Of a stretch of DNA of 56,416 nucleotides, positions 8,664 to 41,025 are shown in pieces. The notes under the pieces were generated by a model. It searched no databases. It saw nothing but the letters and a program-made list of their open reading frames with translations, and was not told where the DNA came from. The stretch is from Candidatus Iainarchaeum sp. GTDB taxonomy: Archaea; Micrarchaeota; Micrarchaeia; Anstonellales; Bilamarchaeaceae. The stretch covers positions 1-56,416 of the forward strand of contig JAQUBA010000004.1 of the NCBI GenBank assembly GCA_028686985.1. The letters run 5' to 3'. The stretch's first letter is position 1. Each line of letters begins with the position of its first letter. Position numbers and translations under genes: made by a program.

Positions 8664-8717
8664 TACAGTAATGGAATAAAGGATAAAAAGGTGCGTAAGG
8701 AGTACGGGCGAAGAGTG

Positions 8718-8843: not shown

Positions 8844-8874
8844 GAATAGGATAAAGAAAAGAAAGAATAAAAGG

Positions 8875-23652: not shown

Positions 23653-23710
23653 CAATTGGATAATGGGAGGAGGAGTTTTAATCTATTGCGATGGATGGGG
23701 GCCGGGCACA

Positions 23711-25071: not shown

Positions 25072-25079
25072 TTTATATA
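25072..25079. promoter_or_regulatory. Palindromic TATA box shared by divergent operons
   Basis: TTTATATA is centred at 25075.5, exactly midway between the minus-strand ATG (25050) and the plus-strand ATG (25101). It lies 22 nt from each start. Confidence 0.6.
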
Positions 25080-25100: not shown

Positions 25101-26780
25101 ATGCGGGGTTGGCTGTTTGCGTTGGTTCTGCTAGGGCTAGCCTTTGCTGCGGGGACGGGCGTGGAGATTCCCGACCTGAACCCGCAGGCAAACCCCGCGT
25201 TCATCGGCGCGATAATCCTGCTCTCCGTGAGTTTTGTCGCGGTGGCCTATGCCGTGTCCACCGGCCTGCAGAACCCGTCCGCCATCGCCTGGAGCAAGGA
25301 CCAGCTGAGGGAGGTGGTTGCGGGGGTAATCCTCGTGGTGATGGTGATCGGGGCTTACGCGACGATAAACGCGCTGCTTGTGCCTTTCCTCACACCGGTT
25401 ACTGAAGACGTGGACCGTGAGGTCAGCCATGATGTCGTTACCGAGACCGGGATATGGAATGTAACCTACCATGTTGCGCATGGGTGCTGCGCGGCGGGGT
25501 GCGGCCCCGGGGAATGCATTACCGGGGACGGGAGGGACGATTTTGAAGGGGAGGCCCCGGGCCCATTTACAATAAGTGCCGGGATGTGCGGGGAATTCCC
25601 GGACCCGGCGGCCGCCCCGTGCGTGAACGTCCTGGTTACCGCGAACGAGGAGCAGCCCTGCGAATACGGGGGGAGCCTCTATTCCAGCACGTGCCATATA
25701 TCGGAAAGGGCGCCCGTGGCGCAGCCGGACGGAACCTACCATACCACGGATGTGGAGATAACCGTGGACAAGGACGTGGTGACGCGCACGGAAACGGTGA
25801 CCGAGACGGTCACGGAAACCATCAGCCACCCGCCGATGACCGACAACGCCATGCTGACGCTGGGCGAGGAGGCGCTGCTTTCCGTCATCAACACGACGAA
25901 AAGGATTTACGAGAGGGTGGGGGAGGCGTATTTCAGCGTGGCCCTATACCAGGGGATGTCGGTGAGCACGACGCGGCTGAACCTTTATTACGTTACGTGG
26001 GGGGAGAGCAGCGCCCCCTTCGCTGGGATAAGCCATGTGATGGTTGCCCTCAACCAGGGGGCGCAGCAGCTCACCTTCCAGCTCCTCAGCTTCCGGGTGG
26101 TGCTGATATTCCTTTCATACATCAATTCCGTGGTTCCATCCTTCATCCTTCCGATCGGCATGGCGTTCCGGGTGTTCCCGTTCACCAAGAAAATAGGCAA
26201 CACCCTCATAGCGTTGTCCCTGGGCGCCCTGTTCATGTTCCCGGCATCCCTCGTGCTGGTGAAGGAAATCCATGGTTCCATCAACTCGGAAAAAGTCAAT
26301 GAGGCGCTCGGAAAGTCCTTCCTGCTTGAATACGAGGGGGTGGGCTCGGAGACCTACGGGCCGCTCATGGCTTTCTGCAAAGAGCCGGTTTTGAGGATAA
26401 TCCTGCTGCCGGGGGAAATACCGCTCAGCATAATCTGGGCAAGCATAGTCTGCGCATTCTCCACGCTAGCCTATGCGGCATGCTGGATAGCCCAGTGGAT
26501 GTTCTTCCTGCAGATACTGTGGCCCCTGCTCAATTTCGCGGTGCAGAACATATTCTCCATATTTGTGCTCCCGTTCGCAAACCAGATGGAGCCGCAGATG
26601 ATATATGACGACCTGGTGCAGCCCGTGCAGATGATACTCCTGCCCGCGATAGCAGAGACGGCCATGTTCGCCATAATCGCCTCCCTCATAATCGCGATAG
26701 TGACCATCACCGGAACCAAGGCCATCGCAAGCGCGATAGGCGGGGATTACATCCTCTACGGGATAACGAGGCTGGTATGA
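25101..26780 (+). CDS. Paralog 1 (P1) of an unassigned polytopic membrane protein family, with a Cys-rich loop
   Basis: I use the ATG at 25101 (MRGWLFALVLLGLAFAAG, a signal peptide). It has the family motifs VAVAYAVSTGLQNPSAIAWSKDQLREV, LPIGMAFRVFPFTKKIGNTLIALSLGALFMFP and the C-terminus AIGGDYILYGITRLV. A Cys-rich insert (HGCCAAGCGPGEC...) and a TETVTETVTET repeat lie between TM2 and the core. Confidence 0.75.
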   Translation: MRGWLFALVLLGLAFAAGTGVEIPDLNPQANPAFIGAIILLSVSFVAVAYAVSTGLQNPSAIAWSKDQLREVVAGVILVVMVIGAYATINALLVPFLTPVTEDVDREVSHDVVTETGIWNVTYHVAHGCCAAGCGPGECITGDGRDDFEGEAPGPFTISAGMCGEFPDPAAAPCVNVLVTANEEQPCEYGGSLYSSTCHISERAPVAQPDGTYHTTDVEITVDKDVVTRTETVTETVTETISHPPMTDNAMLTLGEEALLSVINTTKRIYERVGEAYFSVALYQGMSVSTTRLNLYYVTWGESSAPFAGISHVMVALNQGAQQLTFQLLSFRVVLIFLSYINSVVPSFILPIGMAFRVFPFTKKIGNTLIALSLGALFMFPASLVLVKEIHGSINSEKVNEALGKSFLLEYEGVGSETYGPLMAFCKEPVLRIILLPGEIPLSIIWASIVCAFSTLAYAACWIAQWMFFLQILWPLLNFAVQNIFSIFVLPFANQMEPQMIYDDLVQPVQMILLPAIAETAMFAIIASLIIAIVTITGTKAIASAIGGDYILYGITRLV

Positions 26781-27679
26781 TGAAGGCAGTGCCCATGGCC
26801 CTCATTTTCGTTTCCGCCGCCTTCGCGGCATGCTCCCTTGACAGCAGCCAGTTCTCGGAGGCGATGCCGATAATAGGCGCCGCAATCATGCTGAGCGTGG
26901 CGGTCGTAGCGGTGGCATATGCCGCGGGCAGCATGCTCAGGGACGCGCACCTGCTCGTATTCAGCAAGGATGAGCTTTTCCACCTCCTCATATCCGTCCT
27001 GCTCGTGGTCGCGATACAGTCCATATTCACGGGCTCATGCCTTATCACGTCGGATGTGCTGGACGGGAATGACCCGCTCACCTACTCCGTTTCATACATG
27101 CGGGGGCTGCGGATAGAAGGTTCCTCCGTCCTCACCGGGCTGATGAGGAGCTCCATAGACCAGAAATATGCGGCCGCGGAAACGGGCGGATACTTCTTCC
27201 CTTTCGTGGGCGGCGAGATATTCATGGAGGAATCGTTCAAGAACGCATATTCGCGGCACCTTGACATCGCCTTTGATTTTGTGATGATGGGCTTCGTGAG
27301 CTCGGGCCTGCAGTATGAGGGGATGAAGATGGTCGGGTTCGTCTCGCTTGGCGTGCTGCTTCCCTTTGGGCTCATATTGAGGATGCTCCCCAAGCTGAGG
27401 GATTCCGGGAACGTGGTGATCGCCCTCGCTTTTGCCATATACATCTTCATCCCCTTTTCGTATGCTGCCATCGGCTCGGTGGCGCGCGACATGCCGGTCG
27501 GATGCGATTACAAGTACGATGGCGGGGACGACCCCGTGTTCGGGCCATGCGATGGGGTGACCGGCTTCGGAACCATCGCGAACTACATAATGCAGACCAT
27601 ATTCCTGCCGAACCTTGCGCTGGTGGTGTTCGCCACGGCGGCAGGAGCGCTGGTGAAGATTGCGAAGGTGATACCATGA
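26777..27679 (+). CDS. Paralog 2 (P2), minimal member
   Basis: 300 aa. ATGA overlap with P1. Signal or lipobox-like MALIFVSAAFAAC. Motifs VAVAYAAGSMLRDAHLLVFSKDELFHLL and LLPFGLILRMLPKLRDSGNVVIALAFAIYIFIP. Confidence 0.75.
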   Translation: MMKAVPMALIFVSAAFAACSLDSSQFSEAMPIIGAAIMLSVAVVAVAYAAGSMLRDAHLLVFSKDELFHLLISVLLVVAIQSIFTGSCLITSDVLDGNDPLTYSVSYMRGLRIEGSSVLTGLMRSSIDQKYAAAETGGYFFPFVGGEIFMEESFKNAYSRHLDIAFDFVMMGFVSSGLQYEGMKMVGFVSLGVLLPFGLILRMLPKLRDSGNVVIALAFAIYIFIPFSYAAIGSVARDMPVGCDYKYDGGDDPVFGPCDGVTGFGTIANYIMQTIFLPNLALVVFATAAGALVKIAKVIP

Positions 27680-29745
27680 GGCACTGCGTACTGCTCATAA
27701 TGCTAGCTATTCTTGTTCCGGCAATCCTGGCACAGGAGGGCTACGTGGGGAGCACCCTGGCCGGGATAGAATCCGCGGGCCCGGAATCCAGCACGCTTGC
27801 GCAGGTCGCGGCGAACTGGAGGGTCCTGAGCATACTTGTGGTCATGCTCTCCGTGGGGCTGGTCGCAATCGCCTATGCCATAGCCAATGCATTCAGCCTT
27901 CCGGACCTGAAGGCATGGGCGGACGTGGAGAAGGGGGAGCTCTTCACCTCCGTGATAATAGTGATATCGCTGGTCGGGATACTCGTGTTTGTGGAAGGGG
28001 CGGGCATGGCCCTCGCGGAGGAATCGTCATTCAGGGGAATGTGCCGTGAGGCGTTCCTGGGAGGGGATTTCTGCCCAGCAGTGATAGCCAGGAGCTACCT
28101 TGACAGCTACGCGGGTGCCGCCGAAGACCTCTACAAGGATTTAAGCGTGAGGAAGATAGAGAAGGCCCAGGATGCGTACAGGGGCCACAGCATAACTTCC
28201 GTATTCCTCCTTTGGGAAATCCCGCTGTACCTGGGCACATCCTTCAGGGAGTGGGACGTGGGGTACAATACCTATGATGTGGAGATGTACGACCAGGAGC
28301 TCCAGATGCTCGGCACGATGCTTTCCACCATATACGCGCAGAGATACATAATAAATGCCCTTTCCCTGAGGATAGCGCCCCTCTGCCTCGTGCTGGGGAT
28401 AGTGCTGCGCTCCTTTTTCCTCACCCGCAAGCTCGGGGGGCTGCTGATGGCTTTCGGGGTGGGATTCCTCCTAGTGTTCCCTGCTTCCTATGCAATCGCA
28501 TACCTCACGCTGCAGAGCACGATATACGGGAACCCGACCGTAAATGCGGGGCCTGTGGTTGCGTGCCCGGAGGCGTGCACCCTGCCCCCAATCATCGCTG
28601 CGAAAACCGGAATCACAGCCACGGGGGGGGAGAGCGTGGGGCTGACTGCGAAAGAGCTGGAGGATGCGATAAGGGCCTCCACGGACTATGCGGAGGATCC
28701 GGCAGGGGTTGAGAGTTCGATAAGCGCACTGAAGAACGGAACCATCCCATCCTATTCCTATGATGACGGGGACGGGCATTATACCATAAGTTCCTGCATA
28801 ACCCCTGCACAGCTGGAGGCCTGCCCGATGCACTGCAGGCAGATCCCGTACCCGTTCCAGCTTCCCGAATGCCTGAAAGCGACATGCACCTCTCCTGTCC
28901 CGACCACCGGGCGCATAGCGCCGGCGTGCGTAAGGGTGATATACTTCAACGAAACTGTGAGGGACGACCCGCTCCTGCAAAAATACATTGAGGATTTTGA
29001 CATATGCCCGGAGAAGTGCAGGACAAAAATACCGAAGTGGGGCAGGATGTGGGACTACTATTATTCCCCTGGAATGGAAACCGCCGGCCGCCAGGTCAAT
29101 TTTGAGGTGTTTGAGGAGTGCCCGCCGCAGTGCAGGTGGATAAGCACCAGCAACGAGACCGACTCCGAATGCTCGGACCTGTGCAAGAATGTGCACAAGC
29201 AGGTTCTTGACTGGGGCTGCCACGGGGCAGACTGCTGCTCCCCTGCACATGGATTCAGCGGAGGATGGAGGGTTGAAGGCGATTACGAAGGATACGGCGA
29301 GTGGTGCGGGAAGGACTATTACCAGTTCCCGCTGGACCCGGAAGCGGAATGGGCGAAGGGCGATGACACGCCGGACGACCCGACGGATGACTTTTATGAG
29401 GGGACCACCTACATTATACCGGATGCCGCATTCACGGAGGATTGCGAGCCGTGCCTCTATGTGTTTGACAAGGGCCTTGCCTACAAGCCGCAGGTGATTT
29501 CGGACTGCGTAACCCTGTGCGGGGCGGCGCTTTCCACGGCCAGGACTTATGAGGACCCGGCTACAATGACCAACAAGATGGACGGGCTGGTGGGGCCGAC
29601 CGAGATGAAATCCGTCGCAAAGCTGATAATACCCGCATTCGTACTTCCTCTGTTCGGGCTTGCGGTAACGCTGATGTTCATACAGTCTTTGTCGCCGATG
29701 CTAGGCGGGGATATTGACATCCCGGGAATGATGAGGATGCTATGA
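27676..29745 (+). CDS. Paralog 3 (P3), with a ~340-aa Cys-rich ectodomain insertion
   Basis: I use the ATG at 27676 (ATGA overlap with P2; MRHCVLLIMLAILVPAILAQ) rather than the track start at 27502. Motifs VAIAYAIANAFSLPDLKAWADVEKGELF and LVLGIVLRSFFLTRKLGGLLMAFGVGFLLVFP. C-terminus LGGDIDIPGMMRML. The insert carries CPEAC, CPMHC, CPEKC and CPPQC. Confidence 0.75.
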   Translation: MRHCVLLIMLAILVPAILAQEGYVGSTLAGIESAGPESSTLAQVAANWRVLSILVVMLSVGLVAIAYAIANAFSLPDLKAWADVEKGELFTSVIIVISLVGILVFVEGAGMALAEESSFRGMCREAFLGGDFCPAVIARSYLDSYAGAAEDLYKDLSVRKIEKAQDAYRGHSITSVFLLWEIPLYLGTSFREWDVGYNTYDVEMYDQELQMLGTMLSTIYAQRYIINALSLRIAPLCLVLGIVLRSFFLTRKLGGLLMAFGVGFLLVFPASYAIAYLTLQSTIYGNPTVNAGPVVACPEACTLPPIIAAKTGITATGGESVGLTAKELEDAIRASTDYAEDPAGVESSISALKNGTIPSYSYDDGDGHYTISSCITPAQLEACPMHCRQIPYPFQLPECLKATCTSPVPTTGRIAPACVRVIYFNETVRDDPLLQKYIEDFDICPEKCRTKIPKWGRMWDYYYSPGMETAGRQVNFEVFEECPPQCRWISTSNETDSECSDLCKNVHKQVLDWGCHGADCCSPAHGFSGGWRVEGDYEGYGEWCGKDYYQFPLDPEAEWAKGDDTPDDPTDDFYEGTTYIIPDAAFTEDCEPCLYVFDKGLAYKPQVISDCVTLCGAALSTARTYEDPATMTNKMDGLVGPTEMKSVAKLIIPAFVLPLFGLAVTLMFIQSLSPMLGGDIDIPGMMRML

Positions 29746-30794
29746 TGAAGAAGTTCCTGCTGGCGCTCCTGCTCGTTTCCCTCTCGTTTGCGGCAGAGGC
29801 GGAAGCATGGCAGGTCTATTCCATAACCGCGGTGCTTGCGGCCTTTAGCGTGCTCGTGATATTCTACATGCTCACCTACGCCGTGGACAGCCCGCAGGCG
29901 AGGGGGATGGCGGTAAGCGAGATGTTCCAGGTGCTCGTTACGCTCGTGATAATCGCGGTCTTCGTCGGGGCCGAGGGATACAGCCGTGACGTGCTTGCGC
30001 CGGCATTCGGAGAGGATTTCGGGGCTCCGGAGGGCTATACCCACCTTGATTTTGCGGTGAACATAACCAAATCAATGATCAATTACCAGTGGGGCCAGAT
30101 AACCAAGCTGGACGGGCAGGTCGTGAGGCCGCTTGCGAACCTCGCAACGGTCACGGGCAACTGCGGCTTCCTGGGCTTCAGCTTCACCTTCAATGGCTGC
30201 GCGGGGATAGCCGTCCCGTCCGGCTCGATGGCGCTTGCGATGAGGGTGCTGGTCGCATGCATACTGAGCCTCAGTTCCCAGCTGGTGCTCCTCATGCTCG
30301 CGAACGACTTCTTCTTCCCGGTGCTCCTGCCCATGGGCCTGTTCCTCCGCTGCTTCCACGTCACGAGGGGGACGGGGGGCTTCCTCATCGCGGTTGCGGT
30401 CGCCTTCTATTTCGTGTATCCGCTAGGGGTGATAATAACCAAGGGGATGCTGGACCAGGCCGAGGCGGGGCTGGTGGCGGCCGCGGGGGCGGACAACTAC
30501 GACCCCGTGATACCGTCAATTGATGCGCCGAATGCCGACCTGATGAGCGTGGAATCATTGGAATGGATTGTGCCGGGGGACTGCGACCCCTTTGACATGA
30601 GCTATGAGCCCACAAAGACGATGATTGGGAAGGTCATGAATCCGGACCTCATGGACAGGATGATTTTCCATTTCTTCATAGGGGGATTGTTCACGAGTGC
30701 ATTGAACCTTCTGATAGCGCTTTCAAGCGTAAGGGAGCTGAGCAGGATATTCGGGACTGAGGTTGACGTCTCGGCTCTGGCGAGGGTGTCCTAG
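29742..30794 (+). CDS. Paralog 4 (P4)
   Basis: 350 aa. ATGA overlap with P3. Signal peptide MMKKFLLALLLVSLSFAAEA. Motifs LLPMGLFLRCFHVTRGTGGFLIAVAVAFYFVYP and C-terminus RELSRIFGTEVDVSALARVS. Confidence 0.75.
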   Translation: MMKKFLLALLLVSLSFAAEAEAWQVYSITAVLAAFSVLVIFYMLTYAVDSPQARGMAVSEMFQVLVTLVIIAVFVGAEGYSRDVLAPAFGEDFGAPEGYTHLDFAVNITKSMINYQWGQITKLDGQVVRPLANLATVTGNCGFLGFSFTFNGCAGIAVPSGSMALAMRVLVACILSLSSQLVLLMLANDFFFPVLLPMGLFLRCFHVTRGTGGFLIAVAVAFYFVYPLGVIITKGMLDQAEAGLVAAAGADNYDPVIPSIDAPNADLMSVESLEWIVPGDCDPFDMSYEPTKTMIGKVMNPDLMDRMIFHFFIGGLFTSALNLLIALSSVRELSRIFGTEVDVSALARVS

Positions 30795-30802
30795 GTGTTC
30801 TG

Positions 30803-31873
30803 ATGGCGATTGAGCTTGCGGCGATGTACCCGCTTTCCGTTTTTGCGCTGGGCATCACCATGATTGTAATCGGGCTGGCGTATGCGCTCTCCCAGCTGCT
30901 GCAGAACCCCGCGTTCCTTGTCTGGTGCAAGACGGAATTTTTTGAGGTGTTCGTTTCGCTTGGGATAGTGCTGGTGACGCTGTTCATGATTGGGTTCATA
31001 ACCAACGACGTGAAATACGGGGCGTTCGTGTCCCTGCTCCCGTCCGGCATTGCGGCCCCTTCGTATTCAAATCCGGAGATAGGGGACGGCGACACTGTGT
31101 TCAATGCATCCTCAAAATACCTCACAAACGTCGCATACTTCGTGCACACGAGCATGGAGGGCTCCAGGGCGGCGTACGGCGCGCTGGAGGTGCACATGAG
31201 GTACAGGAGGATGCCATGCCTCCCGGGGATATTGATGTGCATATTCGGCCCCAGCGGATTCAATTTCGCGCCGGAGAGCGGGGGGGGCGCATGGATACAG
31301 GCCATGAACATGACCATGTATACGGACACTGCGGCATACATCACCGTGCTGGTGCAGCTCGCATTCCTCTCCTTCATCCAAAGCGGCGGGTTCCTGCTCT
31401 TCCTCCCTCTTGCGATAGTGTTCCGCTCGCTCCCGTTCATGCGGCAACTTGGAGGGGGGCTGATGGCGATGTGCATCGCATTGTTCATAATCTACCCGTC
31501 GCTGCTGTTCCTGGAGTCGTTCTTCTGGGACCCCTCCGCGATGGTTGGCGCTTCGGAGATTGAGTCGGTGGAAAGCGCGATAAGCGGGATGGCGGGGGCA
31601 GGGGGGGCCGGGGTCGGGATGTTCAGCAACAGCCTTCCGGATGATTTGGACGGGAATGTGTGGAACGAAGGCACATCCCTGAACGACTTTGTCGGGTACA
31701 GGGAGGTTGTGGACAATGCCGTCAGGCCGCTGCTGAAAATAGCCGCGGTCTCGTTCCTGAGCTCCACGTTCCTCTTTGCGCTGAACATAATCGCGGTTTC
31801 CGCATCCGCCAGGGAGTTGGGAAGGCTTTTCGGGCAGGAAGTTGACCTGAGCAGGCTCATGCACATAGTGTAG
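30803..31873 (+). CDS. Paralog 5 (P5)
   Basis: 356 aa. AGGTG Shine-Dalgarno-like sequence in the 8-nt gap. Motifs IGLAYALSQLLQNPAFLVWCKTEFFEVF and FLPLAIVFRSLPFMRQLGGGLMAMCIALFIIYP. C-terminus RELGRLFGQEVDLSRLMHIV. Confidence 0.75.
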   Translation: MAIELAAMYPLSVFALGITMIVIGLAYALSQLLQNPAFLVWCKTEFFEVFVSLGIVLVTLFMIGFITNDVKYGAFVSLLPSGIAAPSYSNPEIGDGDTVFNASSKYLTNVAYFVHTSMEGSRAAYGALEVHMRYRRMPCLPGILMCIFGPSGFNFAPESGGGAWIQAMNMTMYTDTAAYITVLVQLAFLSFIQSGGFLLFLPLAIVFRSLPFMRQLGGGLMAMCIALFIIYPSLLFLESFFWDPSAMVGASEIESVESAISGMAGAGGAGVGMFSNSLPDDLDGNVWNEGTSLNDFVGYREVVDNAVRPLLKIAAVSFLSSTFLFALNIIAVSASARELGRLFGQEVDLSRLMHIV

Positions 31874-31878
31874 GTGAT

Positions 31879-32919
31879 ATGGTGGCTGGTGAAGAAGGGG
31901 GGCTTTTTGACGTATCCAGCCTCCTGAACACGCCGTTCCTTTACGGATGGGGGGACGGGGGCTGGTGGTTTGTGAATTGCGTCCTTGCAATACTCATTAC
32001 CGGCCTGATAATGGGCATGTTCTACGCGATAGGCTATGCGATAAACTCTGCGAACCTGAAAAGGTATTCCATGTCCGAGTTCCTCCAGCTTGCGGCAACC
32101 GCGGTGCTGGTGATTGGGCTGGTGGGGATGCTGAGCATGGGGAGCACGGTGCTCGGGACGATGTTCGGGGGGACGATCCAGTGCAAGGGGAGCCCGATAA
32201 GCAACCACATTGATGCGGCAATGTGCAGGACCACGGAGAAGCTGGGGTATTTCAATGCGGCATACGAGCAGATAAAGGAGGACAATGCGGGGCTGGAATG
32301 GCTTTATTACTGGCAGATGACGCTGCTCGGGGTGCCTTTCTTCCAGGGGATGTGGATAGACGACGTTTACAAGCCGGTGGAAACCGGCCATTACATAGCG
32401 ATGAAGATAGTGTCCGTAATGCTGTCGCTGAACGCGCAGTATTTCCTGCTCAAGTACATAAAGGCGAACATGCTCGCCACCTTCCTTCCCCTGGGCATAA
32501 TACTCCGCACGCTGCACTTCACGCGGGGCATAGGCGGATTCTTCATCGCCCTGGCGGTAAGCCTGTATTTTGTGTATCCCGGGGCGCTTTTCCTCATGGA
32601 TGCGACCTACGCCCCGCCCAGCGACGTGCCGACCCCGGATTACACGAGGGAAGGGGTATGCGACCTGCCGATGTTCAGCGGGTTTTCCATAGGCGCAATC
32701 CAGCCGGCTTCGGATGCGGGAAGGGGGGCTATGAACAGTGCGGCCCGCGCGGCCATCAGCACCGGCAATATGGCCAACTTCGTGACTCGTGTATTCGTAG
32801 GGCTTTTCTTTGACAACATGGTGGCTTTTGCGATGGCGCTCACTGTGATGAGGTACGCAACCAGCCTCCTTGGCGGGGAAGCAGGGGTATTCCTGCAGAT
32901 GATGGCAAGGTGGGTATGA
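31879..32919 (+). CDS. Paralog 6 (P6)
   Basis: 346 aa. AGGTGA in the 5-nt gap. Motifs MFYAIGYAINSANLKRYSMSEFLQL and FLPLGIILRTLHFTRGIGGFFIALAVSLYFVYP. C-terminus LLGGEAGVFLQMMARWV. Confidence 0.75.
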   Translation: MVAGEEGGLFDVSSLLNTPFLYGWGDGGWWFVNCVLAILITGLIMGMFYAIGYAINSANLKRYSMSEFLQLAATAVLVIGLVGMLSMGSTVLGTMFGGTIQCKGSPISNHIDAAMCRTTEKLGYFNAAYEQIKEDNAGLEWLYYWQMTLLGVPFFQGMWIDDVYKPVETGHYIAMKIVSVMLSLNAQYFLLKYIKANMLATFLPLGIILRTLHFTRGIGGFFIALAVSLYFVYPGALFLMDATYAPPSDVPTPDYTREGVCDLPMFSGFSIGAIQPASDAGRGAMNSAARAAISTGNMANFVTRVFVGLFFDNMVAFAMALTVMRYATSLLGGEAGVFLQMMARWV

Positions 32920-35900
32920 TGGACAGGGACATATTGGTCGTTTTGGCGCTTCTCTTCGTTTTTGCAGGATGCACGATGCCCGAATACCGCCAGTGCTGCC
33001 TTTACGCGAATGCCGAGGCGGGGCAGTGCGTGCTCAAGAATGCGACCGCCTACGACACCAACTCGTGCGACATGGAGAACCTCACCTGCAACGTGACGCA
33101 GGGCGACAGGGAGATGACATTCCCCATCTGCCCGAGAGTGGAGGAGGTGGAGTGCAATGTTTCGTGCGCTGGGATGTTCTGCGCAAAATACGAATACGAC
33201 CCAAGGCCGCCCGCCTCGCCCGATTTCATGATTGAGGCGATACAGACCGAGGAGATGAGCAGGGAGGCCGGCATCGGGCTCGGGGAGGACACGGCAAAGG
33301 GCCTCTACGGCACGGAATGCAGGATAGAGAACATCACCCCGACGTTCCTTAACCTCATGAGGAACGTGCAGGGCGGCGTGCGCCTGAACATATTCAGGTT
33401 CGGGGTGGGGGGCTCCTTTGAGGAATTTGACGAGGCATACATGTACTACCCGCTCACCGACTACGCATGCGAAAACAACCAGTTCGGGCATGTGGACCGG
33501 TATGTGAACTACATGATACCGAATTTGATGGGCGGCGGGGAACTGTGCAGCGTGGGGGGCGTGCTCACCCCCACCGGGGAGATACCGCAGTATTTCTGCA
33601 ACGTGGATGATTCCATCCGCACCTTCACCTACCAGGACTGCGCGACAAGGTGCGCGCTGAAGGCATACGGGGATGCCCCGGTGGTCCAGCCCAACAACGC
33701 CTACCCCACGGAAAGGAACGGGATGGAGAGCGGGAACCCGTTTGCATACGGGGTTTCGCCAAGCATGCACGGTAGCGACCCTTTCAGGGACCTGCAATAC
33801 AAATCGTCCATAGATGTCCCGCCGGCGTTTGACGACGAGTATCCTGCGGGGTACACATACTACGGAAGCGAATTCGCGAACAACAGGTACCTGAGCAACG
33901 AGAATGGCGGCTGGGAGAGCATCATGCTTGAGCGCGGCCCCCTCTCCGTGGATGTGACCACCGGCTTCATGGATTACTATTATGGGGAGGAAACGGACCA
34001 GATAACTGTGGAGGGCGGCAACCTAGTGGAGGAGATGACCACAGCCGAAAGGGACCCGCACATGCTGTATTCGTACCTGCTCTCCCGCCATTCCGTCTAT
34101 TCAAAGCAGTTCAAGGAAGGGCATTACACCCCGGAGGGGGAATGGAGCCCGGGCGCGGAATTTGAGTGCACGCTTGAAGGCGGGGAGTGCGTCTCGGGGT
34201 TCTGCAATACATTTGATTATACCAGGGGCGCATGCGAGAAGCTTGACTTTGAAACCGGCGAAACGGAGGAGGTGCCCTGCGACTGCTGGGAGGAATACGG
34301 GGACATAGTGTGCGCCGGGCAGAAATATTATGGAACGGATGCGTGGGACAACGGGGAGGACATAACCGCGGCCAAGCCGCTGGGGACGCTCGTGGAGTGG
34401 GATGAGAGCTTCCTTGGGTTTAGTATCGGGTGGTACAGGAGCTTCCCTTCCACTGGGAAGATGTTCAGCTACGACCCTGGCGGGGTATTCCTGGACGAGC
34501 CGGAGGGGGAAGAGGTGCAGGACCTAGTGATATTGCTTGGGGGCAGGGAGGACCCGGACTACCAGCTATTTGAATATTCGGACGAGCTGGATGACATGAA
34601 TGAGACGCTCACCATCCCGCAGGTGCTCTCCAGGGCGAAGTGGAGCGGGTGCGGCGCGTATTCCGATTGCGGAAAGTTCTACACGACCTTTGTGGACGCG
34701 TGCATGCCGGATTTACCGGACCCGGCATACTCCGAATCCAATTTCATGGTCTGCTACAGCAGGAAAACGAACGGGCACTACGGGCAGGGGATAGACCGGG
34801 CAACCGGGGAGGTCTACGACCTGCCCAGCCCGTCCATCTGCGAGGCGCTTTATGATGCAGACCAGGATGGACACAGCAAAAATGATTACGGGGGCGTGGA
34901 CAAGAACAGCGACACCGACCATGACGTGTATTGCTATGCGAGGGAGTCCGACGGGACGTGCGTCGGGTATGCGAGGGCGGCGCTGGTCCTCACGGCCCGC
35001 GAAATAACCTATACAAACGCGGACGGGGAGGAGGTGATAGGCAAGGCATTCGGGAACTGCATACTGGAGGAGGACAAGCTCAAGGTGGTGACGCCCGGCT
35101 ATTGCGAGCATTGCAGCTTCCTCACCATGGCGAAGGAGAATGTGGTAGAACTACCGGAAGATGATGAAGACCCGGGATACCAGAGGGCAGGCAGCGGGAA
35201 GCTCAACACGAACAAGTACTGCCCCTCCCTTGAGATAAGCACCATATACAATAATGAGCCGTCCGCCATCGTGCTTGCGCCCGGCACCGCGAAAGCAGAT
35301 TGGGAATCCGGGGGGACGCATAGCTCGGGAGGGGATGAGGGGAACCCCTACAGGTACAGCGAATGCACGATGCCTGACGGGACCGAAGCCGGAAAAAAGG
35401 CGGCATGGCCGGATTACCTCCCGAACGCATATTACCTGAAGAAAAAAATAGACGGATACCTGCAGAGGAACGTGATGCCGGTCATATTCGCGGATGACGA
35501 TGGGCTCTACCGGGGACTATACCCCGGAACGGACGACCCCGCCCTTTTTGTGGAAACGGACGGGGATTCCGCCTCAAGCCCCCTGCTGAAGAAGCTGTAT
35601 GACGAGAACCCGCTCGGCTTCGCGGAAAACGCGGACGAGGGCGGGGACGAGTACACGACACAGGGGACCTTCCTTGCGGATTCCGTGATGAACCTCGGCG
35701 CCGGGATAATCGTGGTGAGGAACTTCAATTCAGACGACATGGAAGCCGCCGGGGGCTCGCCCATCATAATCACAGAAACCGGGGAAGCCAGGTCGCTCAG
35801 GAAGATAGATTACACGCTTTACGCCCGCGAGAGGGCGGTCCGGCTCATGTGCCCGAACTGCATGGTCGCGGTCGGGATAGGCTATGGTGAAGAGGGCTCC

Positions 35901-37118
35901 GGCATACCCTCAAGGGTGGTCCAGCTCGCCGAATTGTTTGATTACCGGGATTCCGGCGGCAGGCTCCTCTCGGAATACGATGACTACGGGGCGAACGCCT
36001 CGTGCTTTGAAGGGGGGGCGGGCTGCAGCCAGGACACGCTGCAGAGGGTGGACATACTCGCCGTGAAGTGGGAACTGGGGAGGCACAATTCATATTGCGA
36101 CGAAATAGAGAATGAGAGCGACAGGTTTGAGGCCATCCTCGCGGATGAGGTGGATTTCGGGGCAAAGACGCTCAAGAGGTTTGGGAAGCCGGTCGTGGTT
36201 ACGGATTTCTCCATAACGCGCAACCAGGTGGGGAGCTGCTGGGATGATGAAAGCGCAAAGAGGTTCATGATTTACCTTGCCGAGCATACGCAGGAGCTGG
36301 TGAAGAGCGGGCACATAGGGCTGATATACGGGAACTGGACCTACGGCCACTCCGGGGAAGCGGGCACGAGGTACATAAGGACGAAGGAGGGCAACGTTGG
36401 GGAATACAGGGGGCCGTTCTTTGAAGGCACTTTCCAGGCGGCGCGCATTTTCGCAGGCAAGAATGAGCAGACCATAGTGAACCAGATAGGCGTTTCGGAA
36501 GAATGCGCGTGCGTCGCCTGCACCTCCAGCGACGATGCATCGCTGTGCAACGGAAAGTTCGGGGGGGTGGGGGAATACTGCAGCGGGTATTTGCCGGGCA
36601 TTTCCATGAAATGGCCGGAATCGTGCGTCTCCCCGGATGTTTGTGTGAGCAACGAAGACCTCCCGATGTACAGGATTGAGTGCAACGTTTATCACAACGA
36701 CGGGAGCAGCGAAAGGGTTGTTTATGACGGCGCGGACATCGCCCCGAACCCGCGGCTCTATGCGGCGGAAATCGCATCCATAAAGAAATCCGGGAATGTG
36801 CCGTGCATCCCGATGGGCGTGCAGAACGGAAGCTTCGCCACAATGGAGGTCGGTGGCTCGCAGCCATATCCCATCCTGTTCAGGAAGGACGGAAACCTGA
36901 GCATATCCTGCGGGGGGGTGGCGGAGGAGGGTTTCTTCAGCGCATGCGGCCTGGAGTCGCCGTTCGTAAACCGCAGGATGGACTGCGTGATGGCGAAGAA
37001 GGATGTGTCCATAACGCTTCCGCCGCTGGGGGTCCCGCTTGTCACGGGCGGGGCGGCCATTCCGCTGGCGCCTGGGGTTGAAGTGCCGGACATGCCCGCC
37101 GGCCCGTTCGGTGGATAG
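32916..37118 (+). CDS. Giant (~1400 aa) Cys-rich extracytoplasmic protein with a lipobox-like signal
   Basis: I use the ATG at 32916 (ATGA overlap with P6). N-terminus MMDRDILVVLALLFVFAGC (L-x-x-C lipobox-like). About 50 Cys by my hand count. Many N-x-S/T sequons (NAT, NLT, NVT, NVS, NIT, NET...). No further TM helix seen. No family recognised. Confidence 0.7.
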   Translation: MMDRDILVVLALLFVFAGCTMPEYRQCCLYANAEAGQCVLKNATAYDTNSCDMENLTCNVTQGDREMTFPICPRVEEVECNVSCAGMFCAKYEYDPRPPASPDFMIEAIQTEEMSREAGIGLGEDTAKGLYGTECRIENITPTFLNLMRNVQGGVRLNIFRFGVGGSFEEFDEAYMYYPLTDYACENNQFGHVDRYVNYMIPNLMGGGELCSVGGVLTPTGEIPQYFCNVDDSIRTFTYQDCATRCALKAYGDAPVVQPNNAYPTERNGMESGNPFAYGVSPSMHGSDPFRDLQYKSSIDVPPAFDDEYPAGYTYYGSEFANNRYLSNENGGWESIMLERGPLSVDVTTGFMDYYYGEETDQITVEGGNLVEEMTTAERDPHMLYSYLLSRHSVYSKQFKEGHYTPEGEWSPGAEFECTLEGGECVSGFCNTFDYTRGACEKLDFETGETEEVPCDCWEEYGDIVCAGQKYYGTDAWDNGEDITAAKPLGTLVEWDESFLGFSIGWYRSFPSTGKMFSYDPGGVFLDEPEGEEVQDLVILLGGREDPDYQLFEYSDELDDMNETLTIPQVLSRAKWSGCGAYSDCGKFYTTFVDACMPDLPDPAYSESNFMVCYSRKTNGHYGQGIDRATGEVYDLPSPSICEALYDADQDGHSKNDYGGVDKNSDTDHDVYCYARESDGTCVGYARAALVLTAREITYTNADGEEVIGKAFGNCILEEDKLKVVTPGYCEHCSFLTMAKENVVELPEDDEDPGYQRAGSGKLNTNKYCPSLEISTIYNNEPSAIVLAPGTAKADWESGGTHSSGGDEGNPYRYSECTMPDGTEAGKKAAWPDYLPNAYYLKKKIDGYLQRNVMPVIFADDDGLYRGLYPGTDDPALFVETDGDSASSPLLKKLYDENPLGFAENADEGGDEYTTQGTFLADSVMNLGAGIIVVRNFNSDDMEAAGGSPIIITETGEARSLRKIDYTLYARERAVRLMCPNCMVAVGIGYGEEGSGIPSRVVQLAELFDYRDSGGRLLSEYDDYGANASCFEGGAGCSQDTLQRVDILAVKWELGRHNSYCDEIENESDRFEAILADEVDFGAKTLKRFGKPVVVTDFSITRNQVGSCWDDESAKRFMIYLAEHTQELVKSGHIGLIYGNWTYGHSGEAGTRYIRTKEGNVGEYRGPFFEGTFQAARIFAGKNEQTIVNQIGVSEECACVACTSSDDASLCNGKFGGVGEYCSGYLPGISMKWPESCVSPDVCVSNEDLPMYRIECNVYHNDGSSERVVYDGADIAPNPRLYAAEIASIKKSGNVPCIPMGVQNGSFATMEVGGSQPYPILFRKDGNLSISCGGVAEEGFFSACGLESPFVNRRMDCVMAKKDVSITLPPLGVPLVTGGAAIPLAPGVEVPDMPAGPFGG

Positions 37119-37126
37119 GGGTTTAA

Positions 37127-40100
37127 ATGCTTGAGCACCCAAAAAAATTCATGAGGCCGGCTGCCCTGCTGCTACTGGTGATGCTCCTTTCCCTCGGCTC
37201 CGCATCCGATGGCATAGGGGGCGGGCCAGATGTAGGCGGCGGGATAAGCCCTGAGGCCACGGCAGGGGCGGGCATAGAAATTCCGGTTTATCCCGACATA
37301 TCAAGGCCCATACCCGTCCCTGAAGCGTGCGCCGAATGCCCGCCTCCCGGGCTTGAGCCCCCCCTAATGCTCCCATTCCTGGATGACGTGGGGAAGGATG
37401 CCTCCATCTATGTTGCGGCGACCAAGGAAGGGCGGAGGGTTCCGCTGGAGGGCGCGACCGTATTTATCCATGTATATAAGAGCGCTGGGGATTTCGTATA
37501 TTCGTGCAGGGCATATACCGATTCTTCGGGGGGGGCTGTGCTCTCTTACGCCCCATATGAGGAGGCCTGCAAGAATGGATGCACCATCAAGTTTGTTTTC
37601 TGCTGCTCCGGAGTGGTGGAGCAGTCCTGCATGCTGCCGGTATGCCTCGGGAGCAGCATAACCTCCTACAGCGATTACGTCTCCTGCCCGGGCTATCCGG
37701 ACCCGTGGCCCGTGAATGCGACTGTTGATGGGGTGGCTTACCCGGCCGCGCCCGCCGTTGCAGAGACGCAGATACCCCCCTCCGCGGAGGCGGCCGCCTT
37801 TGCATTGGATTTCGTGTTCTGCTTCCCGATTCTTGTGCTCTTCGGGCTGCTTGGGGCGGCTATGTACGCGTCGGGCAGGGACCCGTTTGCAATTTTCTCG
37901 TTCTACACGCCGAGATATACGCGGGGGGCGGAAAGGCCGATGGGGGCGAGGGGGTTCACATTTGACACGAGGACGATAATGGGTGCGGCGCAGAGCATAG
38001 CCATGGCGGGGATTGCCGGGGCGAGAAAGGCGGAAAAGCAGAGCTCGCAGCAATCCAGCAGCCAGCAGCAGGGTGGAGGCGGGCAGGTGCAAACCACTCA
38101 GGGCGCGACCGGCGCGCTGGGGGAGCCGAGGCAGGCCCAGCAGCCCACGCAGGCACCTTCCGCCGCCTCGGTTGCGCCCCAGGGGGCGCGGGCGCCTGGC
38201 GGTGGCCTGAGCGCAGTAGACCTGAGGGCCGCGGCTCCGCAGACCGGAGGGCTGCCCATCCAGCTGCTTGCGAATGCAATCTTCAAGATGTTCACGGGGG
38301 ACATGAGCGGCTGGAGCAGGTTTGCGCAACTGTTCACTAGTTCTTCCATATACGGGCAGTTTGAAGGGATTGGGGCGCAGGAATTCGCGGCGCAGATGGC
38401 CAGCACCCTCCTCATCTACAGCAACCTCCCGTTCGGGTGGCTCGTGAACAGCTTCACATACTCTCCGCACTTGCAGACGCTTGCAGGCGCAAGGAACCTT
38501 GCGAACATAGGGAAGCTGAGCGACATGCTGTATGGATGGACCGATGAGGAAGGGCATTTCCACAGGGGATGGCAGGAAGATGTGAGCGGCAATATACACA
38601 TAAGCTGGAGGCAGGACGGGGAGGTGCAGGAAAGGGTGTTTGCAAGGGGCTCAAACGAGCTCGTCACCTTCATCCAGAACAACGTAACCGACTCTTACTA
38701 TTCTGCTCAGCAGTTCGTGCAGGTCGCCATGGCGGACTCCCAGCAGGGGCTGGCCGCATCCTCCACCGAAGCGATTGAGGGCAACCTCCGCGGGGCCGAG
38801 GGGAGGATGGGGATAGTTGACCTCACCCACAGGCTGCAGGGATTCACTCCGGAGCAGGTTCAGGCATGGACCACGGAAAGGGGGTTCCAGGGGGCATTCA
38901 GTGGGGCAGTCGGGGTGTTGATGAGCGGCAGGAATGCGGATGGGACGGAGACGACCATGCAACAGAAGATTGAGGCGTTCCGGACCGCCGCAGCCGCGTT
39001 TTCCGTGTTCTCGGGCACCGAAGGGTTCGCGGACAGGTATTCATCGCTCAGCGCAACCCAGGAATTCAGGTTCCTGGAGCGGATGATGACCGTGACCGGG
39101 ACGGCCGAATCCCCCGGGCTGCTCAGGGAGATTATGGCGGCGGAGGGAGGGATGAACGGGGGGGTGCTGACATCAGCCTCGCTCATCGCGCTCTGCATGG
39201 GTTCAACCGACAACGCAACCGCCCAGGCTGCGGGCTCATCGGCAATGGGCGGCCTGCGCGGGATAATCACTTCCGGAGAAGGGCGCCCGAACGTTGCATT
39301 CTCTGAAGGCGCGGAGGGGGTGCATGAGAGGAATTTGTTATCAATGGTGCTTGGGAGCTCAATAGCTTCCCTTGAACCGGCTTCGGAATCATACCAGCAA
39401 CAGTCCTACATGCTCGCCGCGCTTTCAAGCGAATACCGGCTTGAAGCCCAGGCTGTGGCGGAAGGGCTCGCCCCGGATGCGGGCAACAGGGGCTGGGCCG
39501 AGGGGAGCCTTGACATCAGTGCCGGGACCCGGGACTGGGCCGAGCAGTTCCAGGGGAACGCAGCCACGTCCATCGCATTGCAGGAGATGGAACCCATGAT
39601 GGACGCCATGACCAGGTACGCATTCTTCAACGACCCGGTCGCAAGGGAGGTCCTGGCAGCCGCCGACCCGGTGCCCTATGAGGAACTGCAAAGGCGCCAG
39701 AGGGAGGGGGAGCTGTCCTCATCGGACCAGTATCTATTATACGCATACCAGTGCGGAAGGCAGGACCAGGAAAGAGGACGGGAAGTGGGCGCCGCCGCAT
39801 ACGGGCTCAGCGGCGAGGCCGGGGCGGCGGAAGGAATGCTCACGCAGCAGCAGAGGCTGGATGCGGCGCGGACGATTGTGGAGAGCACGCCTATAGAAGC
39901 CGATGTGTCGGGATGGATTGCGGCGGGCAACCAGGAGGCGCGTGCCGCCGCGGTACGCAGCGAGGAGGGGCTGGGAACCGTGCAGAGGTATGCTTTTGGC
40001 CTGTATTTTTCTGATAATGAAGCGGATAAGCAGAGGGGCATGGAGCTTTTGGGGGCAGTCGGTGCGGTCTATCAGGGAACGGGGCCGGAGCGGGACGCGG

Positions 40101-40711
40101 CCGTGGCAACGATATACAACAGCACGCCTGCAGAAATATGGGTTGGCCTATCGGGCGCTGCCGCGACGCAGCTTCTTGTTGATGGGAATGCCGGTGCAAT
40201 CACTGCGGCGCGGACCTACGGAGAACATTATGCCGCGGCCGGCGAGGCCGGAGCGAATCTGGAGGCGGCGCCTGTGGGGCCGCGCCAAGCCATATACGAC
40301 CCCGCAATCAGGGAACCGAGAATCTCGGCATTTGACGCGATGGCCGGCGCCGGCTCCATAGACGTAAATCATTATATGGGCTCGCCCGTGATGCAACAGC
40401 AGACCGCCGCGGTGATGGATGCGGTTGCGGCGAGCACCGCGCGTTTCGCCGCGAGTTCGTTATACCAGGATTATTTCAGCAGCCACACCGAAACCGTGGA
40501 CCAGTGGATGGAGCAGGCGAGGGAGCACCAGAGGCGGCTGGACGAGGCGGGCGCGGTCACCACCGAAACCGGGGCGGTTGTGCTGCCGGAGGAGGGGGGC
40601 GGCGGGCCTCCCGGAGGTGGCTGGGGCGCCAGCGAATACAGCCAAGCGGCACGGAGGGCATACGAGGCAAGGGGCAGGGGGCAGGTCCCCGGTGAGGAAA
40701 TACCCAGGTAA
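37127..40711 (+). CDS. Giant (~1190 aa) bitopic protein: Cys-rich ectodomain, TM, Q/S/G-rich linker, large Ala/Gly/Gln-rich domain
   Basis: Signal peptide MRPAALLLLVMLLSLGSASDG. The N-terminal ~210 aa are Cys-rich. TM FVFCFPILVLFGLLGAAMYA is followed by an Arg-rich flank. Low-complexity KQSSQQSSSQQQGGGGQVQTTQG...QAQQPTQAPS. The remaining ~850 aa contain only two Cys. No Walker motifs seen. Confidence 0.7.
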   Translation: MLEHPKKFMRPAALLLLVMLLSLGSASDGIGGGPDVGGGISPEATAGAGIEIPVYPDISRPIPVPEACAECPPPGLEPPLMLPFLDDVGKDASIYVAATKEGRRVPLEGATVFIHVYKSAGDFVYSCRAYTDSSGGAVLSYAPYEEACKNGCTIKFVFCCSGVVEQSCMLPVCLGSSITSYSDYVSCPGYPDPWPVNATVDGVAYPAAPAVAETQIPPSAEAAAFALDFVFCFPILVLFGLLGAAMYASGRDPFAIFSFYTPRYTRGAERPMGARGFTFDTRTIMGAAQSIAMAGIAGARKAEKQSSQQSSSQQQGGGGQVQTTQGATGALGEPRQAQQPTQAPSAASVAPQGARAPGGGLSAVDLRAAAPQTGGLPIQLLANAIFKMFTGDMSGWSRFAQLFTSSSIYGQFEGIGAQEFAAQMASTLLIYSNLPFGWLVNSFTYSPHLQTLAGARNLANIGKLSDMLYGWTDEEGHFHRGWQEDVSGNIHISWRQDGEVQERVFARGSNELVTFIQNNVTDSYYSAQQFVQVAMADSQQGLAASSTEAIEGNLRGAEGRMGIVDLTHRLQGFTPEQVQAWTTERGFQGAFSGAVGVLMSGRNADGTETTMQQKIEAFRTAAAAFSVFSGTEGFADRYSSLSATQEFRFLERMMTVTGTAESPGLLREIMAAEGGMNGGVLTSASLIALCMGSTDNATAQAAGSSAMGGLRGIITSGEGRPNVAFSEGAEGVHERNLLSMVLGSSIASLEPASESYQQQSYMLAALSSEYRLEAQAVAEGLAPDAGNRGWAEGSLDISAGTRDWAEQFQGNAATSIALQEMEPMMDAMTRYAFFNDPVAREVLAAADPVPYEELQRRQREGELSSSDQYLLYAYQCGRQDQERGREVGAAAYGLSGEAGAAEGMLTQQQRLDAARTIVESTPIEADVSGWIAAGNQEARAAAVRSEEGLGTVQRYAFGLYFSDNEADKQRGMELLGAVGAVYQGTGPERDAAVATIYNSTPAEIWVGLSGAAATQLLVDGNAGAITAARTYGEHYAAAGEAGANLEAAPVGPRQAIYDPAIREPRISAFDAMAGAGSIDVNHYMGSPVMQQQTAAVMDAVAASTARFAASSLYQDYFSSHTETVDQWMEQAREHQRRLDEAGAVTTETGAVVLPEEGGGGPPGGGWGASEYSQAARRAYEARGRGQVPGEEIPR

Positions 40712-40716
40712 TCCAA

Positions 40717-41025
40717 ATGCCAGAAACCCGCCCGGTAAAAAGATTGAGGAGGCACCTCACAATAGAAAACCTCTGGCTCTACATATTATCCCTAATCAGG
40801 AAGGAAGAGTGCTATGCGTATACCCTCCCGGAGCAGATAGAGAGGGGCTTCCATTTCAGGCCCAGCAGGGTCATGGTGTATATCGTGCTCCATATGCTGG
40901 ATGGCGAGGGGCTCATAAAAAGCGAGCAGAAGGAGAGAAGAAAATATTACAGGCTTACGGAAAAGGGGAAGGAGACGCTCAAGGAAGCGAAATGGGAGCT
41001 GAAAGCCCTCTCGGAAAAATTATGA
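40717..41025 (+). CDS. PadR-family winged-helix transcriptional regulator
   Basis: 102 aa. LWLYILSLIRKEECYAYTLPEQIE....VMVYIVLHMLDGEGLIKSEQKERRKYYRLTEKGKETL matches the PadR N-domain pattern. A 5-nt gap separates it from the preceding giant gene. Confidence 0.75.
   Translation: MPETRPVKRLRRHLTIENLWLYILSLIRKEECYAYTLPEQIERGFHFRPSRVMVYIVLHMLDGEGLIKSEQKERRKYYRLTEKGKETLKEAKWELKALSEKL

Follow-up and report, generated by a model that had tools for sequence, protein, structure and literature searches.

The nine-gene operon and its paralogous membrane proteins

The 56,416-nt stretch of DNA from Candidatus Iainarchaeum sp. (Micrarchaeota) analysed here, referred to below as the window, contains a nine-gene operon at positions 25101-41025. 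The operon encodes six paralogous membrane proteins (P1 to P6), two giant proteins (P7 and P8), and a PadR-type regulator. We propose, with a probability of about 0.7, that it is the envelope module of a chromosomal translocation machine derived from type IV secretion systems (T4SSs), similar to the archaeal Ced and Ted systems and typical of Micrarchaeota, a phylum of DPANN archaea. All coordinates and strands refer to window numbering, unless they are preceded by the designation of another locus (L and a number).

The nine open reading frames (ORFs) are read in one direction and contain no internal stops (Table 1). The distances between consecutive genes from P1 to PadR are -4, -4, -4, +8, +5, -4, +8, and +5 nt. 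The P1/P2 junction is an ATGA overlap, and AGGTG precedes both P5 and P6. The ORFs, the junction distances, and the AGGTG motifs confirm the description of nine co-directional, tightly coupled genes in a first-pass annotation that was made from the sequence alone. An independent gene call on an identical Logan contig uses alternative starts of P7 (32919), P8 (37151), and PadR (40744), under which two intergenic gaps could be 32 nt long; the starts listed in Table 1, which are those of the first-pass annotation, are favoured by the N-termini and lengths of orthologs. The putative operon promoter is a TATA-like box within a 50-nt divergent intergenic region that is shared with the upstream minus-strand gene. 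Because a similar box is located at the same distance from the ATG in 12 orthologous loci, the leaderless-type promoter noted previously is plausible, and the operon mRNA may be leaderless or near-leaderless. A scan for bacterial-type promoters and terminators gave matches at chance level only, as expected for an archaeon.

Table 1. Operon genes, promoter, and other features of the window
Feature	Position	Strand	Description
TATA-like box TTTATATA	25072..25079	+	21 nt before P1 ATG, putative operon promoter
P1	25101..26780	+	559 aa
P2	26777..27679	+	300 aa
P3	27676..29745	+	689 aa
P4	29742..30794	+	350 aa
P5	30803..31873	+	356 aa
P6	31879..32919	+	346 aa
P7	32916..37118	+	1400 aa
P8	37127..40711	+	1194 aa
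PadR	40717..41025	+	102 aa, last operon gene
U338	24034-25050	-	338 aa, predicted secreted, Cys-containing, C-terminal transmembrane anchor
Double zinc-ribbon protein	23711-24046	-	111 aa
U190	23083-23655	-	190 aa, predicted cytoplasmic
Cdc48-type double-AAA ATPase, operon-adjacent	20384-23074	+	896 aa
Cdc48-type double-AAA ATPase	3786-5942	-	
Signal recognition particle (SRP) RNA gene	1908-2160	-	
Protein without Pfam match	42093-43583	-	496 aa, between Pelota and tetratricopeptide repeat protein
HMG-CoA reductase	50922-52166		~10 kb downstream of operon

P1 to P6 are true paralogs, as judged from their sequences: their pairwise BLASTP matches are in register, and jackhmmer searches started from each of the six converge on one set of proteins. 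Together with the common motifs, these results bear out the earlier description of P1 to P6 as paralogous membrane proteins. Hydropathy indicates five core transmembrane (TM) helices in each paralog and additional ones in P1. The alignment contains a common TM1-loop-TM2 hairpin, a TM3-loop-TM4 core with the motif LPxGxxxRxxxxTRxxGGxLxA...YxxP, and a C-terminal TM helix with a G-E/D-x-D...L-R tail. Two predicted extracellular regions are variable within the family, and these are large and Cys-rich in P1 and P3. P1 has a signal peptide and a Cys-rich first ectodomain of ~230 residues, and its ortholog group is conserved at the start of the array. P2 is the shortest of the six. P3 has a second ectodomain of ~375 residues and 26 cysteines in the whole protein. 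The N-terminal hairpin of P4 weakly matches a VirB2-like pilin model, and P5 is without a cleavable signal peptide. P6 is the paralog nearest to the single-copy family members that adjoin ATPase genes in other loci. The AlphaFold2 model of P6 (predicted local distance difference test score, pLDDT, of 75) has five TM helices, and its extensions form an extracellular helical bundle and small beta hairpins. Orthologs of P3, P4, and P5 are enlarged to 700-1470 residues by growth of the ectodomains in L003, L021, L024, and L028.

An exhaustive search with hidden Markov models (HMMs) retrieved 3,147 representatives of the family, clustered at 50% identity, at E<=1e-3, and 743 at E<=1e-30. A word-indexed search with an 88-member profile, limited to 8,000 candidates, yielded mainly P4 orthologs. 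The ortholog groups P1 to P6 hold their order down to ~20-30% identity. A second array without P7 and P8 (L033) is collinear from P1 to P6, and the type-b array of L029 and that of L068 have exactly six members each. These sequence comparisons indicate that the six-fold array is ancient and its gene order conserved.

Two separate sets of family members, with 88 and 90 proteins, were scanned against the 18,950 models of NCBIfam. The most recurrent matches in the 88-member set were CedA (8 members, best E 1.8e-4) and CedE (4 members, best E 3.5e-4); a VirB2-like pilin of Mycoplasma integrative and conjugative elements was matched in 4 members, P4 among them. In the set of 90 representatives, CedE was matched in 12 members (best E 1e-5) and CedA in 9 (best E 8.5e-8), and every other family in at most two. 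The match of the consensus of single-copy members covers the TM3-loop-TM4 core and corresponds to positions 137-185 of the 259 positions of the CedA model. HMM consensus sequences of the individual ortholog groups gave no gain in sensitivity over real members in these scans. CedA is the VirB6 homologue in the crenarchaeal DNA-import system (PMC9905601, PMC11868833), and CedE is its five-TM paralog and a structural homologue of VirB6 (PMC11868833). At the level of sequence profiles, the scans show the P1-P6 family to be remotely homologous to CedA and CedE, the archaeal VirB6 homologues, and place it outside the curated CedA, CedE, and TrbL families.

Several other identities of the proteins were considered and rejected. 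An ATP-binding cassette exporter was indicated by one weak match in P4 (E 0.0078), which recurred in only 2 of the 88 members. The topology is wrong for an Mce-like heterohexamer of single-pass proteins. The fold match of P6 to TTYH2, which has five TM helices and an extracellular helical bundle, is insignificant and was not accepted as homology. A type IV pilus or archaellum was dismissed since none of its parts are matched in Pfam or NCBIfam, and the 9 operon proteins contain neither a Walker A motif nor a class III signal motif nor an ATPase domain. These absences, already listed in the first-pass annotation, hold for the nine proteins and, as regards the ATPase, for the window.

P7 is acidic and Cys-rich, with 53 cysteines, ~40 of which are conserved. 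Its N-terminal signal carries the sequence LFVFAGC, a lipobox-like L-x-G-C in which the G-C is invariant in 18 orthologs, and P7 is predicted to be extracytoplasmic. Pfam searches of the 18 orthologs returned a single match, to DUF7107. P8 is composed of a signal peptide, a conserved Cys-containing ectodomain of ~200 residues, one TM helix, and a tail of ~950 residues. A basic juxtamembrane segment that follows the TM helix is conserved; the tail is rich in Ala, Gly, Ser, and Gln and poorly conserved. The tail, and hence most of P8, is predicted to be cytoplasmic. Signal peptides, polytopic cores, the lipobox of one giant, and the bitopic topology of the other agree with the earlier assignment of all eight structural products to the membrane or the exterior, except for this cytoplasmic part of P8. 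Searches of PDB sequences with P7 and P8, and with profiles of P6, P7, and the whole family, gave nothing meaningful.

The only operon protein to match a curated family in Pfam and NCBIfam scans was the last one (PF03551, E 1.7e-13, 50.8 bits against a cutoff of 27), which identifies it by sequence as a PadR-family winged-helix transcription regulator. A PadR gene comes after P8 in at least 10 orthologous loci.

ATPase, adaptor, and pilin genes in related loci

The operon is one of a family of loci in which CedA/VirB6-like subunits occur together with VirB2-like pilins and a motor of the CedB/VirB4 type. The minimal cassettes of L030-L032 encode an 81-residue hairpin protein, one family member, a 261-residue protein with two TM helices (2-TM), a 477-residue ATPase, and a 232-residue coiled-coil protein with a winged helix-turn-helix (wHTH). 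The best NCBIfam match of the cassette ATPase is CedB (E 6e-28), followed by VirB4-like conjugation ATPases, and its matches among PDB sequences are HerA and VirB4. In L027/L035, L037/L041, and L038, a complete operon of P1-P6, P7, and P8 is followed by a trio of genes that encode a 2-TM protein (36% identity with its minimal-cassette counterpart, E 2e-55), a 510-residue DUF87/AAA_10 ATPase (50% identity), and a third protein. The gap between P8 and the trio is 5 nt in L027. The six paralogs are followed by the trio without P7 and P8 in L068, the trio stands alone, away from P-family genes, in L039 and L040, and the six-paralog arrays of L033 and L034 adjoin neither the ATPase nor P7/P8. The possibility that PadR is a remnant of the third trio protein was rejected because the two are not similar.

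Starting from the ATPase, a metagenome scan retrieved 48 loci. The position directly upstream of the ATPase module is visible in 32 of these and is occupied by a family member in 27; in the minimal cassettes, the position directly upstream of the family member is visible in 22, and a pilin-like gene occupies it in 12. Two tandem genes directly 5' of the six-paralog array of L029 pass the Pfam thresholds of TrbC/VirB2 (32.1 against 27.9 bits) and T4SS_pilin (31.8 against 26.6), and the 81-residue protein of the minimal cassettes is a homologue of these pilins. A jackhmmer search started from the 81-residue protein draws in P1 orthologs and aligns it weakly with the N-terminal hairpin of family members. 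In the pairs CedA1/CedA and VirB2/VirB6, the pilin was reported to be homologous to the N-terminal hairpin of the polytopic subunit (Beltran et al. 2023, PMC9905601). The pilin profile gave only noise against the PDB, with no CedA1, TedC, or VirB2 chains.

The AlphaFold2 model of a 266-residue 2-TM protein has low confidence (pLDDT 64), and its top Foldseek match is TrwK/VirB4 of R388. TrwK/VirB4 chains account for 7 of the top 19 matches, with a best probability of 0.93. The model suggests that VirB4 is split into an N-domain protein, represented by the 2-TM protein, and a short ATPase. CedB and CedD were reported to share out the VirB4 N-domain (PMC11868833).

Additional genes were noticed in some of these loci. 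A Rad50/arcadin-4-like structural maintenance of chromosomes (SMC) ATPase of 752 residues is encoded directly 3' of the minimal cassette of L032 (L032:6918-9176), which recalls Rad50 in the Ted loci of Thermoproteales. A membrane-anchored protein of ~254-264 residues with an HExxH motif (LRHELYHK) is encoded just 5' of the pilin gene (L030:8973-9767, L031:8946-9710). It has no match in Pfam or NCBIfam and could be a candidate pilin-processing metalloprotease. L068 (Ga0315282_10002815, about 870-11500) contains the 2-TM adaptor twice, with 277 and 276 residues. The C-terminal ~100 residues of its ATPase form a separate ORF; the same split occurs in L066, L069, L072, and L075-L077, and could reflect either a genuine division of the gene or a frameshift that recurs.

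Conservation and genomic surroundings

The order P1 to P6, P7, P8 is kept in at least 17 other loci, down to ~20-30% identity, as determined by ORF and HMM labelling, which is far beyond chance expectation. This answers positively the search for synteny in archaeal genomes that had been suggested with the first-pass annotation. A scan of GTDB species genomes provided 30 loci, all from Micrarchaeota-type metagenome-assembled genomes, and all homologues with an organism name come from Candidatus Micrarchaeota. P4 shares 100% identity with an NCBI protein that carries the label Candidatus ainarchaeum sp.

The neighbours of the operon in the window are housekeeping genes encoding FtsZ, SHMT, FolD, MscS, two Cdc48-like AAA proteins, Pelota, GMP synthase, ProRS, and HMG-CoA reductase. 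The GC content is 0.57-0.63 in the operon and 0.51-0.61 in the flanks, without a compositional break. No integrase or relaxase gene was found in the flanks, and tRNA genes are not adjacent to either end of the operon. The usual neighbours in relatives are genes of the Cdc48-like AAA, U190, and zinc-ribbon proteins upstream and Pelota downstream, and the position of the operon is constant among genomes with only ~40-58% protein identity. The same housekeeping flanks in many genomes show that the operon is chromosomal and vertically inherited, and its earlier description as chromosomal rather than mobile agrees with the similar GC content and the conserved synteny.

The genes of U338, the zinc-ribbon protein, and U190 (23083..25050, minus strand) are divergent from the operon and adjoin it in many genomes. 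In L020 (L020:14851-15779), the zinc-ribbon and U190 genes are shifted to directly 3' of P7 on the same strand, where the window has P8 and PadR, and this relocation hints at a functional link with the operon. The relocated pair is followed by a gene of a 590-residue protein (L020:15776-17548) with a signal peptide, a C-terminal TM helix, and a segment that, judged by eye, resembles the proteolytic domain of Lon protease (S16).

The operon-adjacent member of the two Cdc48-type double-AAA ATPases in the window has an N-terminal region of ~380 residues without a CDC48_N match, and it lies beside the operon in several genomes, even in another orientation (L004 compared with the window). The 496-residue protein without a Pfam match is kept at the equivalent place in L011 and L012. 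The best Rfam model for the SRP RNA gene of this archaeal genome is the bacterial large SRP (65.8 bits), which probably reflects competition among related models of one Rfam clan. In many Micrarchaeota loci (L035, L037, L039, L051-L063), HMG-CoA reductase is encoded downstream of the ATPase trio at a distance of a few kb. Its proximity to the trio in relatives and to the operon in the window indicates that the wider neighbourhood is syntenic. In the lineage of the window, the ATPase trio has apparently been lost or relocated. Because the trio directly follows P8 in some Micrarchaeota, the absence of the ATPase is true of the window and not of the system.

A putative T4SS-derived machine and its alternatives

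The tight translational coupling and conserved order of the six paralogs suggest a single hetero-oligomer of all six that forms a channel or platform in the cytoplasmic membrane. As a pseudo-hexamer, P1 to P6 would be an attractive match to a hexameric HerA/VirB4-type motor, and the differing ectodomains, Cys-rich in P1 and P3, may form an extracellular base. P7 could be a lipid-anchored, disulfide-rich surface component that functions as a stalk, an adhesin, or an envelope-penetrating part. P8 would join an outer beta-rich domain, through its single TM helix, to a cytoplasmic tail that docks the ATPase module; such a link to a cytoplasmic motor is suggested by the motor genes directly following P8 in loci where they are linked. 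The ATPase module of this genome would be encoded outside the 56-kb window and presumably couples to the channel in trans, and PadR may autoregulate the operon. The machine would move DNA or some other macromolecule, in a contact-dependent manner, from cell to cell between the micrarchaeon and its partner or host. The simplest assumption for the substrate is DNA, as in Ced and Ted and in view of the Rad50-like gene beside one cassette. We consider the derivation from T4SSs very probable; the full picture of a hetero-oligomeric channel, a motor in trans, and macromolecule transfer is probable overall, at a lower level than the T4SS-derived assignment. More speculatively, and in our opinion doubtfully, the ring of six paralogs with P7 and P8 might be the core of a conduit, specific to this DPANN phylum, that draws DNA, nucleotides, or other macromolecules from the host (a "feeding bridge"), in which case the six ectodomains and P7 would set host recognition and envelope penetration.

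A number of results weigh against the T4SS-derived, Ced/Ted-like machine. All CedA and CedE matches are far under the curated cut-offs of NCBIfam, which are intended to capture close orthologs (for CedA, 330 bits), and none of the six paralogs of the window match CedA at E<=1. The Pfam family TrbL/VirB6 (PF04610) is not matched at E<=1 by the six proteins of the window, and it is absent from the 25 Pfam families listed for the 88 members. The best Foldseek match of the P6 model in the PDB is TTYH2 (E 0.04, TM-scores 0.16-0.19), and VirB6 of R388 is not among the 50 listed matches. The hhalign alignment of the 81-residue pilin-like protein with the TM1-loop-TM2 hairpin is weak (P 0.003-0.009, probability <10%). 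The 56-kb window contains neither a VirB4/CedB/HerA-type ATPase nor a homologue of the 2-TM adaptor, and no pilin-like ORF of >=45 residues. P7 has no known domain in Pfam or NCBIfam, and no relatives of known function were detected for P7 or P8 in Pfam, NCBIfam, and PDB sequence searches.

A rival explanation is that the operon encodes a wholly new envelope apparatus unrelated to any described system and that the CedA and CedE matches are artefacts of TM composition. Consistent with this, no member of the P-family passes a curated threshold, and P6, P7, and P8 have no sequence or fold match in the PDB. However, composition artefacts would scatter over many families of membrane proteins, whereas the same two families came up in two separate sets, and any other family was matched in at most 2-4 members. 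In addition, dozens of loci independently link the family, through gene context, to genuine VirB2 pilins and to ATPases of the CedB/VirB4 type, so that this explanation is largely refuted and very improbable. It is less far-fetched, but still unlikely, that in operons of the PadR type the VirB6-like array with P7 and P8 is uncoupled from the ATPase and functions at the surface without ATP, as a platform for adhesion or contact, as a passive pore, or as an anchor of the surface layer. PadR holds the exact position that the ATPase trio has in other lineages, the 56-kb window is without an ATPase, the arrays of L033 and L034 adjoin neither an ATPase nor P7/P8, and the cytoplasmic tail of P8 is poorly conserved. 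On the other hand, the solitary trios of L039 and L040 could act in trans, T4SS and Ced genes are often scattered, as are cedD and cedE of Saccharolobus (PMC11868833), and the conserved basic juxtamembrane segment of P8 favours a cytoplasmic partner.

Among explanations that retain a T4SS-derived machine, it is conceivable, although we do not favour it, that the machine moves something other than DNA, such as effector proteins into the host, or nutrients or lipids from it; proposals of this kind exist for the T4SS of epibiotic Patescibacteria and for the giant SPEARE proteins of nanohaloarchaea. Micrarchaeota are host-dependent, and the operon is without a relaxase or DNA-processing gene in the Pfam and NCBIfam scans. 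The epibionts of the candidate phyla radiation (CPR) have a near-universal chromosomal T4SS, mostly without a relaxase, some genes of which are essential for epibiotic growth (PMC12102498), and giant surface proteins of nanohaloarchaea bear VirB4-like domains (PMC10266531). Nevertheless, the nearest characterised relatives, CedA/CedE and CedB, move DNA (PMC9905601, PMC11868833), and a Rad50-like gene comes after the minimal cassette of L032, a feature shared with Ted loci. An operon serving an integrated conjugative element as its transfer apparatus would fit the typical location of T4SS genes on mobile elements and the presence of VirB4- and VirB6-like proteins among those encoded by conjugative plasmids of archaea (PMC9905601). 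Such a role is, however, hardly credible here, given that the operon occupies the same site, between the Cdc48-like AAA, U190, and zinc-ribbon genes and Pelota, in genomes with ~40-58% protein identity, that neither an integrase or relaxase nor a coupling protein besides the ATPase trio of relatives was found, that the GC content is even, and that the ends of the operon have no adjacent tRNA genes.

Ced in Sulfolobales and Ted in Thermoproteales are composed of VirB6-like CedA, CedE, and TedA, the VirB2-like pilins CedA1 and TedC, and the VirB4/HerA-like ATPases CedB, CedD, and TedB. Like the putative Micrarchaeota machine, they are chromosomal, minimal, T4SS-derived archaeal systems. The P-family recurrently gives remote matches to CedA and CedE, and the best match of the linked ATPase is CedB. 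Both sides have a two-helix hairpin pilin, and the resemblance of the N-terminus of the polytopic subunit to the pilin, reported for CedA (PMC9905601), may extend to the P-family, where the alignment is weak. The paralogs CedA and CedE were proposed to form a hetero-oligomer (PMC11868833), and a Rad50-like gene adjoins one Micrarchaeota cassette (L032), as in Ted. In contrast, there are six ordered paralogs here instead of one or two, P7, P8, and PadR have no counterpart in Ced or Ted, and VirB4 is apparently divided between a 2-TM N-domain protein and a short ATPase, with a coiled-coil wHTH protein as the third partner. The similarity is far under the family thresholds, and the host is a DPANN symbiont rather than a free-living crenarchaeon.

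The rvh T4SS of Rickettsiales contains five tandem enlarged VirB6 paralogs, RvhB6a-e, and is chromosomal with scattered genes (PMC2653234). It shares with the operon the tandem VirB6-family paralogs with large variable extra domains across an obligately host-associated lineage; the rvh paralogs are enlarged by sequences flanking the VirB6 domain, and the orthologs of P3-P5 by ectodomain growth. The rvh system differs in being bacterial and diderm, with a full VirB7-11/D4 set, and its five paralogs of 674-1154 residues carry the Pfam TrbL/VirB6 domain, which is undetected in the six proteins of 300-689 residues here. The resemblance is one of evolutionary pattern, not of orthology. In Patescibacteria (CPR), a chromosomal derivative of the monoderm conjugation-type T4SS (MPF-FATA) forms a single-membrane T4SS of VirB4, VirB6, and VirB3, in some cases with VirB2-like pilins; it mostly lacks a relaxase, and its near-universal occurrence among these ultra-small, host-dependent cells suggests a function in symbiosis (PMC12102498). 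Neither a six-fold expansion of VirB6 nor giants like P7 and P8 are described there, whereas no VirB1-like, VirB8-like, or coupling-protein genes were found here. The nanohaloarchaeal SPEARE proteins are giant membrane-anchored surface proteins of DPANN archaea that are linked to T4SS ATPases and were proposed to function in host interaction (PMC10266531). SPEARE unite a VirB4/TraG-like ATPase and Ig-like repeats in one giant fusion protein, whereas P7 and P8 have no ATPase domain, recognisable repeats, or detectable homology to known proteins, and accompany a VirB6-like array.

The first-pass annotation could name no family for the operon, a statement refuted by the remote homology to CedA and CedE and by the pilin and ATPase cassettes in relatives. 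The general idea of a dedicated envelope apparatus, a conduit or cell-cell interaction machine, fits all the evidence; it does not stand as one unrelated to described systems, because the remote CedA/CedE homology places the proteins in VirB6/TrbL-type conjugation machinery. Full-text literature searches returned no description of this operon, nor of a T4SS- or Ced-like system in Micrarchaeota. The novelty lies in the six-fold array and its two giants, in a VirB4 that is apparently split and has a wHTH protein as third partner, and in chromosomal conservation throughout a DPANN phylum. No Pfam or NCBIfam model is matched above threshold by the P-family, P7, P8, the 2-TM adaptor, or the third protein of the trio, all of which could represent new families.

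How DPANN archaea attach to their hosts and take up material from them is a long-standing open question, for which candidate machinery is scarce and mostly unannotated. Through the analysis, what had been hypothetical proteins become a defined candidate machine, for which the specific predictions are a system of T4SS ancestry widespread in Micrarchaeota, with a six-fold VirB6-like array, two giant envelope proteins, and a split VirB4-like motor. It would extend the range of Ced/Ted-like systems from Crenarchaeota to DPANN archaea and provide an archaeal parallel to the expansion of VirB6 in Rickettsiales and to the symbiosis-linked T4SS of CPR bacteria. The operon is thus a candidate cell-to-cell conduit for host-dependent Micrarchaeota.

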